A stretch of 58,974 nt of DNA, taken from an uncultured bacterium. Its GTDB lineage: Bacteria > Chlamydiota > Chlamydiia > Chlamydiales > 2-12-FULL-49-11. Below the pieces are notes generated by a model. The model was not told where the DNA came from and searched no databases. It saw only the letters and a program-made list of their open reading frames with translations. The stretch is taken from NCBI GenBank assembly GCA_964477345.1, contig CAYZDL010000003.1, positions 1 to 58,974 of the forward strand, given 5' to 3'. Every line of letters starts with the position of its first letter. Within the stretch, counting starts at the first letter, position 1. This document shows positions 47,809 through 54,103 of this stretch, piece by piece. The translations under genes and the position numbers were made by a program.

Positions 47809-48960
47809 TCATTTATCTAATGAAATCTTATTTCCCTTAGCCTTGACTATTTTAACAGCTTCTTCATAGGGTTCTTTGAAAACATCCTCTTTTCCCGGTT
47901 TTTTTGAATCCTTGATAAAATAAGATATTTCATTAGTATTTCCTACAGTAATAAATAAAAGATCGCCATCTTGAAGAGGTTCTTTCTTAGTATTTCTATG
48001 TATGAAGGAGAGATTAACTACAGCTCTCATCGGACTAAAGGGGTATTCTCTTAAGTAGGGTCTCAATTTTTCATGTTCATTAACCCTGTCTGCCAGTTTT
48101 TGCTTGAGGGTAACAATTAGATTTCGAGCCTCTTCGATCGTAATTCTCTTCATCACAGCAAATTCAACAATAATTCTTTCAACATCAAACGGCATGCCTG
48201 CACCAGATCCAATTGCCTGAATTTTAAATTCCTTTCCCATATCCTTTTGAAAATCTCTAATCACTTCGTTCACATATCTCTCATCTATTGCAATTTCGGG
48301 GCGTTTTCTTTTTTCAGGTGGGAGGGGTGGCTCCTTCTGTAAAAGACCCTTTTTATACTCCGCTGATATAAATTGTCGCCTCTTAATATCCCACCCTTCC
48401 AAGGGGCCTTCAGCTTTCCCATTTACGTACTTAATCGCTATCCATAAATTTCCTGTTGGATGGTTTGTGGTTTGATAACCATCTAGCAAACCATTTTCAT
48501 TATATGTAAGCATGTGTATTTTTTTAAGATTTTGAACTGGGTCCTTTCGATAGAAACTAATATGTATACCTTGCTTGATTCCTTCTTTGAAAAACCCCTT
48601 AAATGCATCTACTCCGTTGTCATACCAACCATGCACATGACCATTCGGTTTACCATCTTTGTAGGGAATTTTCGCTTTAAGAGTTCCATTACTCCAATAT
48701 TCGACGTATTCCCCTGTGGGTTCTTTTTGGACATGATCTCTTAGTCTATTGAGAAATTGTTCTCCAAAATCAGTACCCGTTAAACCTTCCACCATCTCTT
48801 CAACGGCACCCACAAGATCCGTAACCCCATGCCGAATCCCAAAAACTTTCGATTCCCACTCAGAAGTAATTTCTTTGGGGCTATCGACAACCATTGGTTC
48901 AGCAGCTAACAAACTTAGCCCCAGAAAAAGACTACCTTTGATTGCACACATAAAATCCAT
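47809..48960 (-). CDS. signal-peptide MORN-repeat (YwqK-like) protein; candidate Rhs immunity
   Basis: ORF runs to 48972; the ATG at 48960 follows GGAGA. Has 'MDFMCAIKGSLFLGLSLLAAEP' and MORN-variant repeats 'YWSNGTLKAKIPYKDGKPNGHVHGWYDNG...'. It overlaps the Rhs 3' end. Confidence 0.7.
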   Translation of the reverse strand: MDFMCAIKGSLFLGLSLLAAEPMVVDSPKEITSEWESKVFGIRHGVTDLVGAVEEMVEGLTGTDFGEQFLNRLRDHVQKEPTGEYVEYWSNGTLKAKIPYKDGKPNGHVHGWYDNGVDAFKGFFKEGIKQGIHISFYRKDPVQNLKKIHMLTYNENGLLDGYQTTNHPTGNLWIAIKYVNGKAEGPLEGWDIKRRQFISAEYKKGLLQKEPPLPPEKRKRPEIAIDERYVNEVIRDFQKDMGKEFKIQAIGSGAGMPFDVERIIVEFAVMKRITIEEARNLIVTLKQKLADRVNEHEKLRPYLREYPFSPMRAVVNLSFIHRNTKKEPLQDGDLLFITVGNTNEISYFIKDSKKPGKEDVFKEPYEEAVKIVKAKGNKISLDK

Positions 48961-51900: not shown

Positions 51901-54103
51901 AATAACTCCAGACTTCGCTTCCATCGGCTCTAATCACGTGAAAGGGCTTTTTAAAGATTGTATACTCGCTTCGTGTAATGGATCCGTTTGGGAGCTCTTC
52001 ATAAACAATGTTACCCTGAAGATCGTACTCATATCGAATCACATCATCAGTGGGAAGAGTCTTTTTAATGCACCTGCCAAAAGCATCATATTCAAATTGT
52101 GTGATGGCACCTTTATAGTCTCGTTCAGCGATTACTCTTCCCAAGGAATCGTACATCATGGAACTTTGTTTACCATTCTGACAACAACTGATAGGACGGT
52201 TTTGTGCATCATAGGTGATTTTTTTTCGAGGGGAGCCTACTTCTTTAATCTCAATAAGATTGCCCCAAACGTCGTAAGAATATTCATTTTTGCTACCAAG
52301 GGGAAGGGTTTTGCTAATGACCCGGCCTGCTTTATCGTAGTCTGTTGAAATTGAGTAGTGGCTGGTCTCTTCTTTAATTACACGCCGTGGAATGTCGTAC
52401 TTGTAGACTGTTCTTTTAAGACCTGTATCCACCTCCATGACCATGCCATTTTGCGGGTCCCTCTTGTATTTTTCTACATTCTCATGACCCTGATCAAAGG
52501 CTCTTTTCTCTATTAAAAGATGGTCCTGATCGTATTCATAGACTTCCTCAAAAATAATCTGGTCATCGATCATAATGCGTTTATGTTCAAGCAAGTCAGT
52601 CTCTTTTAGATAAGAGTAAAAGCAGAGTAATCCACTCTCTTCCCGCTCTTCTACAAGAAGGTTCCTTTGATCGTAACGATACCACTTAGAGTAACTCTCA
52701 TTGGATGATTTACCTGTTAAATTGCCATGGATGCTTTCTTGAATAACATTTCCATAGTCATCATAGACAAAAAATTTTGAAAATATCATTTCCTCATTCG
52801 AATTACACATAGCTCTTTCTATTAGATGCCCCGCTTGCCAGGTAAATTTTTGGGAGCAGTAGAGTTGATCATCTTTATCAAAATACTCGATTAGCAAAAG
52901 GTTTTCATCGCGGTAGTGGTATCGTGTGAGGATATGATTGGCGTCGCGTAGATCAGTAATTCCCGGCACATAGGTAAAAGAAGCAATGCATTGCCCCCTT
53001 TGTGAGATGGTTTTGACCCTGTCAATTTCAAAGGGCTTCAGATGGGGGCTCCTTTCCCATTCTTTGCCGTCTTCTTTATTCGAGGGGCGATAATAATCTA
53101 CATAGAGCTGTTCTTGACCTTGCACGAAGATACGATCAAGAACAGCTTCCTGCCCCCTACGCATTGGGGAGTAGGTTAATAGTTGTGATGGATCAGAAGT
53201 CGTTTCTACTGATGACAGAGTGTTTTGTTTTTTGAAAGAATTTCCTGTATACTTGACATATTGCCCCGTATTGGACAGGACAAATATGCAATAAGGAGAC
53301 TCAGTATTCATTTGCTCTATGACAATAGAGGCATAAATTTTGGTTCCCTTAGGGTTGTATTGTGTGACATGAATATGCTTTCCCTCATATTCATAACGGA
53401 AAACCGTTCTTTGCCCCGAAGGAGAAACTGCCTCTTGTAAAAGATAGTACCTGAGATTTCGCTCAAAATCATAGGTATGGCTATCGACAATTTTATCTTT
53501 AAAGCTTCTTGGAGTACCTTTATAAATACGTTTCCCGCCATCTGCTAAGTAAACAGTCGCATTCCCTTTTTTGTAATTGAGATGAAGCCGGTGATTATTT
53601 GGATTAAAACGACCACTGATCATTCCAAAACTCTGCCTCCGTTTACTTTCTGACTGCATGATTATGATGTCACCCTCCTTCTTGACATATTTATAGGTAA
53701 TCATAACGCCATTAGGCTCTTTTAGGTAAACTTTGAAACCGTCGTACCCAGATGATCCAGCATTTCTCGGATCAACGAGCATTTGTATGTGTGGAAAAAA
53801 ACTCCAGCCTCCTTCGGGCTGCCAAATCGTTTCCAATGATTTAAGATCGATTTTTTTGCGCTGAGTGACTTCATTGTGACTGGCGCTAGAGTAGGTTCTA
53901 GTGATGTGGATGGGCACTGCCCCTTGTATCACTTGATCCTCGAAGAATAGTTGCAGGTTACCAGAGATTACATTGACATGATTGACTAAAGCAGGATCGG
54001 CATCTCCCAGAAAAAGCTCATCCCATGCGCTGAACAACAACGCAGGAAACACAAAAACGAAAAAAAGGAAATGTTTCATTTTTCCGAAAATATCTTTACA
54101 CAT
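48932..54103 (-). CDS. Rhs/YD-repeat protein with Sec signal peptide and alpha/beta-hydrolase-like C-terminal tip
   Basis: 1723-aa ORF with many YD units (YEYDAFGR, YEYDLQGN, YAYDSYGR, YHYDVKGR, YQYDDLDR...). Core end is 'FGKRFYDPKLKRFLTPDPAGF...PTNRLDLFGL'. The likely true start is the Met at 54079 ('MKHFLFFVFVFPALLFSAW'). Confidence 0.9.
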   Translation of the reverse strand: MCKDIFGKMKHFLFFVFVFPALLFSAWDELFLGDADPALVNHVNVISGNLQLFFEDQVIQGAVPIHITRTYSSASHNEVTQRKKIDLKSLETIWQPEGGWSFFPHIQMLVDPRNAGSSGYDGFKVYLKEPNGVMITYKYVKKEGDIIIMQSESKRRQSFGMISGRFNPNNHRLHLNYKKGNATVYLADGGKRIYKGTPRSFKDKIVDSHTYDFERNLRYYLLQEAVSPSGQRTVFRYEYEGKHIHVTQYNPKGTKIYASIVIEQMNTESPYCIFVLSNTGQYVKYTGNSFKKQNTLSSVETTSDPSQLLTYSPMRRGQEAVLDRIFVQGQEQLYVDYYRPSNKEDGKEWERSPHLKPFEIDRVKTISQRGQCIASFTYVPGITDLRDANHILTRYHYRDENLLLIEYFDKDDQLYCSQKFTWQAGHLIERAMCNSNEEMIFSKFFVYDDYGNVIQESIHGNLTGKSSNESYSKWYRYDQRNLLVEEREESGLLCFYSYLKETDLLEHKRIMIDDQIIFEEVYEYDQDHLLIEKRAFDQGHENVEKYKRDPQNGMVMEVDTGLKRTVYKYDIPRRVIKEETSHYSISTDYDKAGRVISKTLPLGSKNEYSYDVWGNLIEIKEVGSPRKKITYDAQNRPISCCQNGKQSSMMYDSLGRVIAERDYKGAITQFEYDAFGRCIKKTLPTDDVIRYEYDLQGNIVYEELPNGSITRSEYTIFKKPFHVIRADGSEVWSYYSPTGELKETIQADQTRIFYEYDPLRRLVAKKQANLEEKWEYEGVLLKRHVDPEGLITRYAYDSYGRKIEESCEGRKRELFYDELGYVKKIVEGELYKLESHDVEGKIIESSENGFNRICYLYDNEGRKSQARKGDAVDTFFYDAEGKLALHVNPLNEKTEFIYEDDSRTIVDALGNRTIERFDRLSRLIQTEKQSADGKTVFREEFIYDKIGNVSKRSTTIFDGEIPQKVIEAEFAYDLMGRLIEEIESGQKRTAYHYDVKGRLTSKLLPSGVSLDYQYDDLDRMIGLKSSDGTIWYEYFYEGTRLVRAEDCILEKSIIRSYTKFGELAEEIGFSDHRISWSYDKYGRVTQLILPDNSAIGYTYNGSCMESITRLSKQGKRLYEHCYTKFDHNQHVEEEELIGNLGRATSKRDLLERPLEMITPYYKLELIYGPTGLITKNHNSLTENKEYQYDSLEQLTQENGNSYSFDSIGNPKECEINDLNQIITSSTGNFKYDLNGNLIECNGVSYCYDALNRLKEIQYTKGKKVVYTYDPFSRLVSKKDSQTIYYLYDKDYEIGAMDQNGTLFQLKVLGLGVKGDIGAAIAIEICKKRFAPLHDFQGNLIGLVNSDAKIAETYDYTAFGEEVSSDHINPWRFTSKRHDEKLVFFGKRFYDPKLKRFLTPDPAGFADSRNLYVYTLNSPTNRLDLFGLKSEFFFSLPIKGAAPNANYSNPFPRTHRDYLMPVEWIGTGRLNEMTADMLFIASRTFDLTFTPQEIRAGSFNFFDHIHELIENADNKIAFLTFQNGINTSREDWIRMGHQMAWIFPKGTLIASVYNPTNGVIPGVYRSFRERAGEETYSAKALRVFHTDLIDILNTHAPNAKALHIAYSEGGIIYNRSFEGMSREDKERMQEFLYCEGIGPAESIPRRYALDAVSIFSDADFIARWFAKQSNEEYNVQWVKAETPLARRTMFIADHGIGEATYTGVLNNVVKKYGDKHGFYVCNQR

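Follow-up and report, generated by a model that had tools for sequence, protein, structure and literature searches.

A Sec-signal Rhs protein with a predicted alpha/beta-hydrolase tip and a conserved candidate immunity partner in an uncultured chlamydia

Contig CAYZDL010000003.1 of GenBank assembly GCA_964477345.1, from an uncultured bacterium of the Chlamydiales (GTDB lineage 2-12-FULL-49-11), was analysed computationally over 58,974 nucleotides (nt), and this whole stretch is referred to below as the window. Its minus strand carries, at 48932..54103, a gene for a large Rhs protein that ends in a 296-amino-acid (aa) tip, followed by a partner gene at 47809..48972 whose C-terminal domain we call immC and whose N-terminal half we call immN. 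We interpret the two genes as an Rhs polymorphic toxin/immunity operon, in which a Sec-exported Rhs protein would deliver a serine esterase/lipase payload and the partner would serve as a periplasmic immunity protein, a reading that we consider probable and hold with moderate confidence. The computational evidence consists of the Rhs architecture, the fold predicted for the tip, an invariant catalytic triad at the standard positions of that fold, and a conserved linkage between the tip and immC.

Architecture of the Rhs protein

The features of the Rhs protein upstream of its tip, in order from the N-terminus, are as follows.

48932..54103, minus strand: Rhs toxin open reading frame (ORF), 1723 aa, more likely 1715 aa from Met9
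54023..54079, minus strand: Sec-type signal peptide MKHFLFFVFVFPALLFSAW, with Met9 (ATG 54077-54079) as the probable true start, from homolog N-termini and an independent gene call
53873..53983, minus strand: N-terminal plug-like region with the motif '..HVNVISG..' (Pfam DUF6531, 22.7 bits, under the 24.1 cutoff)
50042..53872, minus strand: YD-repeat shell (Rhs cocoon), from RHS_repeat, YD_repeat_2x, a TEN_YD-shell tag and 19 YxYDxxG-type motifs
49823..50041, minus strand: Rhs-associated core, DPAGF...PTNRLDLFGL (TIGR03696, 70.5 bits against a cutoff of 32.5)
49904-49906, minus strand: candidate catalytic aspartate D1400, invariant in 11 chlamydial cores
49835-49837, minus strand: candidate catalytic aspartate D1423, invariant in 11 chlamydial cores

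The gene is a single intact open frame of 1723 codons, and by its profile matches its identity as an Rhs protein is far above chance, with Pfam RHS_repeat at an expectation value (E) of 1e-51, NCBIfam TIGR01643 YD_repeat (YD_repeat_2x) at E = 6e-41, and TIGR03696 Rhs_assc_core covering residues 1355-1427. Because full-length Rhs homologs begin with M-(K/R) and a hydrophobic stretch, and because the gene is called at 1715 aa (and tagged TEN_YD-shell) in an independent assembly of the same locus, Met9 is preferred as the start, in agreement with the initial annotation of this sequence, which had placed a signal peptide at the internal Met at 54079. The cleavage site of the signal peptide is a predicted one. 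A hydrophobic N-terminus recurs in 50 of the 54 long (full-length) members of the toxin family, compared with 2 of 270 internal control windows, and the motif 'HHVNVI[ST]G' is kept at the N-termini of family members. Within the shell, a strict YxYDxxG-type pattern counts 19 repeats and not the dozens that had first been described.

The core ends at residues 1418-1427 in PTNRLDLFGL, and the original reading of this segment as a variant of PxxxxDPxGL holds, with the TIGR03696 match extending to the same residue. In other Rhs proteins the cut falls after the whole D-x-x-G-L motif; by analogy, cleavage here would be expected between L1427 and K1428, which shifts by one residue the site proposed initially (DLFG-L, before the final leucine). 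The published Rhs autoproteolysis motif reads DP(I/L)G...D(P/S)xG(L/W) (PMC11461821), and the chlamydial clade carries the variant D-[LQE]-F-G-L where others have D-P-x-G-L. Across the 11 chlamydial cores compared, the F-G-L is invariant along with both candidate aspartates, and the protein of the window has the complete arrangement of an Rhs core ending in an autoproteolysis-type motif with two candidate catalytic residues.

A tip family with invariant candidate catalytic residues

Beyond the core lie the tip and its candidate catalytic residues.

48935..49822, minus strand: toxin tip, 296 aa, an approximately 30-aa linker followed by a predicted alpha/beta-hydrolase domain (family, AlphaFold2 model, Foldseek)
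49535..49540, minus strand: Asn1522-Gly1523, candidate oxyanion-hole turn after the strand at tip residues 88-94 (conservation, model)
49286..49288, minus strand: Ser1606, candidate nucleophile in A-[HY]-S-E-G-G (100% conserved; strand-turn-helix in the model)
49130..49132, minus strand: Asp1658, candidate catalytic acid in the motif Y-S-x-x-D, after the strand at tip residues 222-228 (100% conserved; model)
49025..49027, minus strand: His1693, candidate base in the motif (A)DH before the C-terminal helix (99% conserved; model)

The tip alone matched nothing in Pfam (even at E <= 0.1), in NCBIfam, or among PDB sequences searched with phmmer, and a first homolog search recovered three relatives that are 41-50% identical to it. 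A profile built from these first relatives and run over 1.84 billion cluster representatives (clusters at 50% identity) matched 427 clusters at E <= 1e-3, of which 108 reach E <= 1e-30, while a word-indexed search with the tip profile yielded only 10 further proteins. One of the matches, protein P0114 (1751 aa, E = 2e-30), is a false positive composed of 18 tandem repeats of about 81 aa that score about 4.7 bits each, so that the numbers obtained over the cluster representatives are a little too high. Most matches are the C-termini of proteins of 1650-1830 aa, located directly after PxNRLDxFGL, and all named sources are metagenome-assembled genomes of Chlamydiia or Parachlamydiales. A search of a plasmid collection found no match to the family, and there is thus no sign of plasmid carriage.

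To score conservation, 108 homologous domains with 22-50% identity were aligned with MAFFT. Three tip residues reach 100%, G96 (G1523), S179 (S1606) and D231 (D1658), and H266 (H1693) reaches 99%; they are followed, in tip numbering, by S228 (98%), T272 (96%), N95 (N1522, 91%) and D265 (D1692, 90%). Both N1522 and G1523 are invariant in a smaller alignment of 31 sequences (A2), the elbow glycine that follows the serine is conserved at 85%, and the glutamate after the serine and a T-Y pair after the histidine are invariant features specific to this family. Position H178, directly before the nucleophile, is His in 94% of the domains and Tyr in the protein of the window.

These values bear directly on the motifs picked out by eye in the initial annotation, which are not chance look-alikes because their key residues are invariant or nearly so across the 108 domains. 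The proposed strand and oxyanion turn, IAFLTFQNGINTS, maps to residues 1515-1527 and contains the conserved N1522-G1523; the elbow 'HIAYSEGG' maps to residues 1602-1609 around Ser1606, and 'FIADHGIG' to residues 1689-1696 around His1693. For 'IFSDADF' (residues 1653-1659), where the acid had been left as Asp1656 or Asp1658, the conservation singles out Asp1658, and Asp1656 is not conserved.

Predicted fold and enzyme class

AlphaFold2 prediction of the tip from four sequences gave a predicted local distance difference test score (pLDDT) of 36.6 and was discarded, and the model used here, built on the 31-sequence alignment, has a pLDDT of 86.3 and a predicted template-modelling score (pTM) of 0.87. 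In tip numbering, the model places strand 88-94 before N95-G96, strand 172-178 before Ser179 and helix 181-190, strand 222-228 leading to Asp231, and His266 in a loop before the last helix, 271-287. The predicted structure has a serine elbow between strand and helix, the first position of which is Ala and not Gly, and has serine, acid and histidine in the order and at the loops that are standard for alpha/beta hydrolases.

A Foldseek search of the PDB with this model returned 91 matches at E <= 1e-3, every one of them an alpha/beta hydrolase, including feruloyl esterase, esterases A and D, S-formylglutathione hydrolases, monoglyceride lipase, cutinases and minimal lipases, as well as the catalytic domains of the S9 peptidases DPP4 and prolyl oligopeptidase. 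Target-normalised template-modelling (TM) scores were 0.60-0.61 to the minimal lipases 1i6w and 6nkc. In a library of predicted viral structures the best matches, down to E = 2e-9, include DUF676, PGAP1-like and class-3 lipase proteins. With these results the tip is predicted to have the hydrolase fold that was initially proposed for it, and the non-hydrolase model that the initial annotation had named as a refuting outcome was not obtained; the proposed Ser-Asp-His residues are both invariant in the family and located at the standard topological positions of the model, and the fold and triad are well supported by prediction. The suggested kinship with Tle phospholipases and DUF676/PGAP1-like families fared less evenly: DUF676 and PGAP1-like proteins do appear among the viral fold matches, but none of the profiles for Tle1-4, DUF2235, Lipase_3, DUF676, PGAP1 or DUF900 reached its curated Pfam threshold with the tip. 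From the fold, taken together with the periplasmic address predicted for the partner, the chemistry would be that of an esterase or lipase, and the substrate may be a lipid.

The partner gene and its constant domain

The gene immediately downstream of the tip is organised as follows.

47809..48972, minus strand: candidate immunity gene, longest ORF 387 aa, likely start ATG 48949-48951 (MCAIKG..., 380 aa)
to about 48298, minus strand: immN, the MORN/YwqK-like N-terminal half (MORN_2 match)
47812-48297, minus strand: immC, a new C-terminal domain of about 150 aa (from homolog architectures)

From its likely start, the partner gene overlaps the last codons of the toxin gene by 20 nt. The gene downstream of P0001, the closest homolog of the toxin, encodes a protein 57% identical to the partner of the window and has the same 20-nt overlap. 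The immN half matches MORN_2 at 26.5 bits, under the cutoff of 29.6; PF07661 is pre-annotated on many partner homologs, and several are named 'antitoxin component YwqK' by the Joint Genome Institute (JGI). No sequence relative of immC was found in Pfam or the PDB. The initial annotation had described the neighbour as periplasm-directed, and this description gains weight from a conserved partner family with a hydrophobic, signal-like N-terminus, found in the protein of the window and, among 106 homologs, in 96, against 2 of the 270 internal windows used as a control.

In total, 108 partner homologs were found, and the loci examined from them carry an Rhs gene with the same tip immediately upstream. 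Their architectures are immN-immC in 76 cases, immC-immC in 14, immC alone in 10 and immC-immN in 5. Because immC is found beside the toxin as a single domain, as a pair, or joined to the MORN half on either side, the domain architectures mark immC as the constant partner of the toxin domain and the MORN half as dispensable.

Linkage, arrays of candidate immunity genes and variable tips

Profiles for the toxin, immN and immC were built and run over all fetched loci. Every genome locus that retains DNA 3' of the toxin domain has an immC gene next, or the start of one at the contig end. A metagenomic survey retrieved 80 loci with a chlamydial Rhs core, 77 of them with a complete tip, and the tip was a member of this toxin family in 61 loci and unrelated to it in 16. 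Where a toxin locus in this survey had at least 700 nt of downstream sequence, an immC or immN gene lay directly downstream in 48 of 51 cases. A conserved core followed by a variable C-terminal toxin is thereby seen both in these 16 other tips and in a truncated Rhs module elsewhere in the window, described below.

Several loci carry tandem arrays of candidate immunity genes after one Rhs hydrolase toxin, with 2-4 copies overall and 3-4 in the four loci named here; some of the loci reached through the partner homologs have four paralogs. In L003 (1632-6131) and L004 (1075-5574) the repeated units are full immN-immC paralogs that are 57-80% identical to one another, and in L029 (2519-4753) and L023 (4157-6286) they are single-domain immC genes. 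Where toxin homologs of about 320 aa stand alone, with no Rhs part, the next gene encodes an immC-immC protein that has no MORN half. The tight linkage, the overlapping reading frames, the export signals predicted on both proteins and the diverged tandem paralogs are standard marks of a polymorphic toxin-immunity system of the kind that acts between bacteria, and the shuffling, doubling and tandem amplification of immC point to this domain as the immunity determinant.

Individual loci show further variation around this arrangement. Directly after the immC gene of L068 (4825-5621) lie frameshifted, degenerate fragments of a second hydrolase toxin that look like a displaced former tip; such displaced fragments are a fifth feature in support of a polymorphic toxin-immunity system. 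Alternative tips in L071, L072, L075, L079, L080 and L088 open with a conserved hydrophobic 'PDGQFAF.IPL...' and continue into varied C-terminal domains, some with restriction-endonuclease-like 'D..YELKP' motifs. The Parachlamydia-like stand-alone toxins of L005 (6001-8000) and L006 (6001-7990) have neither Rhs nor a Sec signal, and each precedes a gene for an immC-immC protein. At their N-termini both have a motif rich in Cys (...KACIMA...CSKC..WC...C), and L005 also contains, close by, one Ntox50/MafI2 and one HicA/HTH pair. Locus L011 (CAMAXK010000006.1), titled 'MAG: Chlamydia trachomatis', carries the gene for an Rhs hydrolase toxin of 1694 aa together with two candidate immunity genes, and its label is probably wrong, an environmental chlamydia being the more likely source.

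Proposed mechanism and alternative explanations

In the mechanism that we propose, the pre-protein would be exported by Sec through the signal peptide that begins at Met9, and the YD repeats would close as a shell around the C-terminal 296 residues. The aspartyl autoprotease of the core (D1400, D1423) would then cut after L1427 and free the tip, a predicted alpha/beta-hydrolase serine hydrolase with the triad Ser1606-Asp1658-His1693 and the oxyanion turn Asn1522-Gly1523, which most likely would cleave membrane glycerolipid esters from the periplasmic side of the target cell. The co-translated partner would also reach the periplasm, where immC would bind and block the toxin, shielding the producer and its kin. 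It is from sequence that we infer export, cleavage, a periplasmic site of action, the immunity role of the partner and the target, which may be other chlamydiae or the host.

Several results weigh against this interpretation. The elbow is atypical, as A-Y-S-E-G-G is not a strict GxSxG and has Tyr in place of the prevailing His of the family; the structural similarity is modest, with query-normalised TM scores of 0.31-0.46 in the PDB search; and the mixture of lipases, feruloyl esterases, S-formylglutathione hydrolases and S9 peptidases among the fold neighbours does not fix a substrate class. No significant sequence match to a characterised enzyme was obtained, the best relevant PDB match of the 31-sequence profile being 7x2p, a 'putative lipase', at E = 0.4, and Pfam searches with the 31 members gave only sub-threshold matches to DUF900 (two members, E = 0.047), DUF676 (one, E = 0.033) and Lipase_3 (one, E = 0.041). 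An hhalign comparison with a Bacillus subtilis LipA sequence gave E = 0.033 and 1.5% probability, and although Ser1606 pairs with Ser77 and Asp with Asp in this weak alignment, the pairing is taken as a hint only. On the side of the linkage, immC is missing from 3 of the 51 toxin loci, and many stand-alone toxin homologs lack a signal peptide. Chlamydiae are obligate intracellular bacteria with no known type VI secretion system (T6SS), and no delivery route is known. A comparative study of polymorphic toxins also concluded that intracellular bacteria mostly lack immunity genes and direct such toxins at the host, rarely at their own kind (PMC3482391).

In a different account of the same genes, the protein is a host-directed effector whose tip, while the bacterium grows inside its host cell, would act on membranes of the host or the inclusion, or on some other host ester; the downstream protein would be a chaperone, regulator or other partner and not a defence against other bacteria. 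All named sources are obligate-intracellular chlamydiae, and Zhang et al. (2012) argue that intracellular bacteria use toxins mostly against hosts (PMC3482391). This account is also in keeping with the many stand-alone homologs (for example the Parachlamydia-type P0150-P0160) that have polar N-termini and no Sec signal, like type III substrates, and with the structural neighbours found in giant viruses of amoebae. The MORN repeats of the partner could be read the same way, since MORN repeats are membrane-associating modules in eukaryotes. Against a host effector stand the presence of the partner gene in 48 of 51 loci, the signal-like N-terminus that the partner itself has in 96 of 106 homologs, and the orphan and degenerate tips found nearby; in addition, tandem arrays of paralogs diverged to 57-80% identity are the pattern of immunity genes in conflicts among bacteria and not that of chaperones. 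We regard a host effector as plausible from the lifestyle but unlikely. Should the tip instead be an inactive or structural relic, and the Rhs protein a decaying or non-toxic surface protein such as an adhesin or outer-membrane protein, the listing of Rhs proteins among predicted chlamydial outer-membrane proteins (PMC2811131), the truncated 'mini-Rhs' remnants in the window and in L001, and the Tyr that replaces the family His before the nucleophile would find an explanation. The frame of 1723 codons is intact, however, its GC (guanine plus cytosine) content equals that of its flanks, all catalytic and core residues are kept, and purifying selection across the 108 domains is clear at exactly the triad positions, which leaves a relic very improbable.

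The toxin/immunity interpretation may also be correct in its outline while the tip is a serine hydrolase other than a lipase, acting on a different substrate in the periplasm or envelope, for instance a peptide or thioester, or an ester linked to peptidoglycan or carried by a lipoprotein. The top fold matches do include feruloyl esterase, esterase D/S-formylglutathione hydrolase, DPP4 and prolyl oligopeptidase, no lipase family is reached at a curated threshold, and Zhang et al. were unable to assign a lipid substrate to Tox-ABhydrolase-2 (PMC3482391). The best target-normalised matches, however, are LipA (1i6w), Lip_vut1 (6nkc) and cutinases, the viral library points to DUF676, PGAP1-like and class-3 lipase proteins as neighbours, the sequence hints all concern lipase-type elbows (7x2p 'putative lipase', DUF676, Lipase_3), and the known periplasm-acting alpha/beta-hydrolase toxins are phospholipases (bioRxiv 10.1101/2023.03.28.534661). 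A non-lipase activity is, on this evidence, unlikely, and a toxin/immunity operon with an esterase/lipase tip continues to be the interpretation that we prefer.

Relation to known toxin systems

The general type described here is not new, as Rhs toxins that carry a lipase-type tip and are countered by an immunity protein in the periplasm are already known. The Tle phospholipases of the T6SS have an alpha/beta-hydrolase fold and periplasmic Tli immunity proteins, and related lipase domains are found at Rhs C-termini in Pseudomonas and Vibrio (bioRxiv 10.1101/2023.03.28.534661). Like the Tle1-Tle4/Tle(ECL)-Tli systems, the pair in the window combines a predicted alpha/beta-hydrolase serine hydrolase with a nucleophile elbow and an adjacent candidate immunity gene whose product is predicted to be periplasmic. 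Unlike Tle, the tip matches no Tle-associated Pfam family (DUF2235, Lipase_3 and others) at threshold, the window contains no PAAR, VgrG or other T6SS gene, and the Rhs protein bears a Sec signal; as for the immunity side, immC shows no sequence relationship to any entry of Pfam or the PDB.

Tox-ABhydrolase-1, -2 and -3 have been described as alpha/beta-hydrolase tips of polymorphic toxins, including RHS proteins (Zhang et al. 2012, PMC3482391), and the same work has on record 'T2SS' (Sec-signal) RHS toxins in chlamydiae and Tox-ABhydrolase-2 in Protochlamydia (PMC3482391). Tox-ABhydrolase-1 corresponds to DUF2235, which has no match in the tip of the window. Tox-ABhydrolase-2 is described as mainly proteobacterial and fungal and, in its chlamydial case, as without an immunity gene, whereas the family described here is nearly always linked to immC. 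The tip family may still be a divergent branch of Tox-ABhydrolase-2 or -3.

WapA of Bacillus subtilis, a monoderm, is a cell-wall-anchored protein with a Sec signal, a YD/Rhs shell, tRNase tips and a downstream immunity gene. The protein of the window resembles WapA and other Sec-dependent YD-repeat toxins in its Sec signal, YD shell, variable C-terminal toxin, downstream gene and independence of a type VI system; it differs in that its producer is a diderm, obligate intracellular bacterium and in that its tip is a predicted hydrolase that would act outside the cytoplasm. In the model, the tip shares with LipA (1i6w), Lip_vut1 (6nkc), Fusarium cutinase and DUF676/PGAP1-like esterases the fold and the placement of the oxyanion turn, Ser, Asp and His, and it has local motifs similar to those of LipA (AHSMGG in LipA and AYSEGG in the tip; YSSAD and FSDAD). 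Identity to these proteins is only 8-18%, query-normalised TM scores are 0.31-0.48, profile scores stay under threshold, and, unlike them, the tip has an additional N-terminal beta-hairpin/helix region (tip residues 33-85). The partner, in turn, is like the YwqK (MORN_2) antitoxins in the MORN_2 match of its N-terminal half and in the 'YwqK' names given by JGI, and unlike them in that this match (26.5 bits) stays below 29.6 and in that the constant toxin partner is immC and not the MORN half.

Genomic context and a second, truncated Rhs module

The remaining features of the window are as follows.

46475-47794: der/engA, ordinary chromosomal neighbour
54191-56694: metN, metI and nlpA, ordinary chromosomal neighbours
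40516-40883, plus strand: class A RNase P RNA (228 bits), between the CT398-like and SNF2 helicase genes
14336-14418, plus strand: single tRNA-Leu(UAA)
44850..45858, plus strand: truncated 'orphan' Rhs module on the far side of der (tblastn against 80 Rhs core loci)
44850-44966, plus strand: signal-peptide-like stub of the orphan module, ending in a stop
45849..46382, plus strand: ORF of 177 aa, overlapping the orphan module at its end and proposed, by position only, as the immunity gene for the tip of that module (DUF4085, 18.6 bits against a cutoff of 24.1)

The Rhs gene is embedded among ordinary chromosomal genes, which also include those for an SNF2 helicase and a CT398-like protein. The GC content is flat at about 0.40-0.41 across the gene and its flanks, which rules out a horizontal-transfer island at this locus, and a scan of the locus for promoters and terminators gave matches at chance level and was uninformative.

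In the orphan module, a frame other than that of the stub encodes the last part of a shell, a canonical Rhs core (TIGR03696, 82.7 bits against 32.5; PFRYIDPNGQ) and a tip of about 155 aa. This tip is unlike the hydrolase tip, with a hydrophobic start (FVFAIPLGIG...) that resembles that of the alternative metagenomic tips ('PDGQFAF.IPL...') and an end reading '...DHVHLDDDEHALNHDGTWKHGG...', and it has no Pfam match. Together with the 177-aa ORF, the module is possibly a second toxin/immunity cassette or a recombination reservoir.

A comparable remnant is present in another chlamydial genome, at L001 9520-10888 (on the same contig as L007), as a 'mini-Rhs' from which the whole YD shell has in effect been deleted. 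It consists of a signal peptide with about 45 further residues up to a stop and, out of frame with these, the last approximately 110 core residues and a full hydrolase tip, the latter annotated as the stand-alone 295-aa protein P0001. This locus may be a pseudogene or have arisen by recombination, or it may reflect a collapse in the assembly.

Implications

A full-text literature search returned no paper on Rhs proteins in environmental chlamydiae beyond the listings in PMC3482391 and PMC2811131. New here is a large toxin family (at least 427 clusters at 50% identity) with a predicted catalytic triad and no sequence relative in Pfam, NCBIfam or the PDB, together with an uncatalogued domain of about 150 aa, immC, as its constant partner. 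Also new, in that we found no earlier description, is a toxin-immunity linkage with multi-gene immunity arrays that is widespread in the Chlamydiota, a distribution that contrasts with the earlier view of intracellular bacteria as largely without immunity genes and not fighting their kin (PMC3482391). If confirmed, the pair would provide annotators with two new domain families, and would be a concrete and tractable chlamydial toxin-immunity pair that could be expressed in Escherichia coli without chlamydial genetics.

As a wider and more tentative proposal, which we consider possible though doubtful, environmental chlamydiae, despite their obligate intracellular life, may wage inter-bacterial warfare, between strains or inside a shared inclusion, by means of a lineage-wide Sec-exported Rhs cocoon. 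In about 80% of loci this cocoon would be armed with one uncatalogued family of periplasm-acting serine lipases or esterases, and immC, as a new immunity fold, would be duplicated into arrays in an arms race. No type VI system could serve for delivery, and such warfare, if true, would imply a hitherto undescribed route that carries a periplasmic Rhs cocoon from one diderm cell into the periplasm of another.

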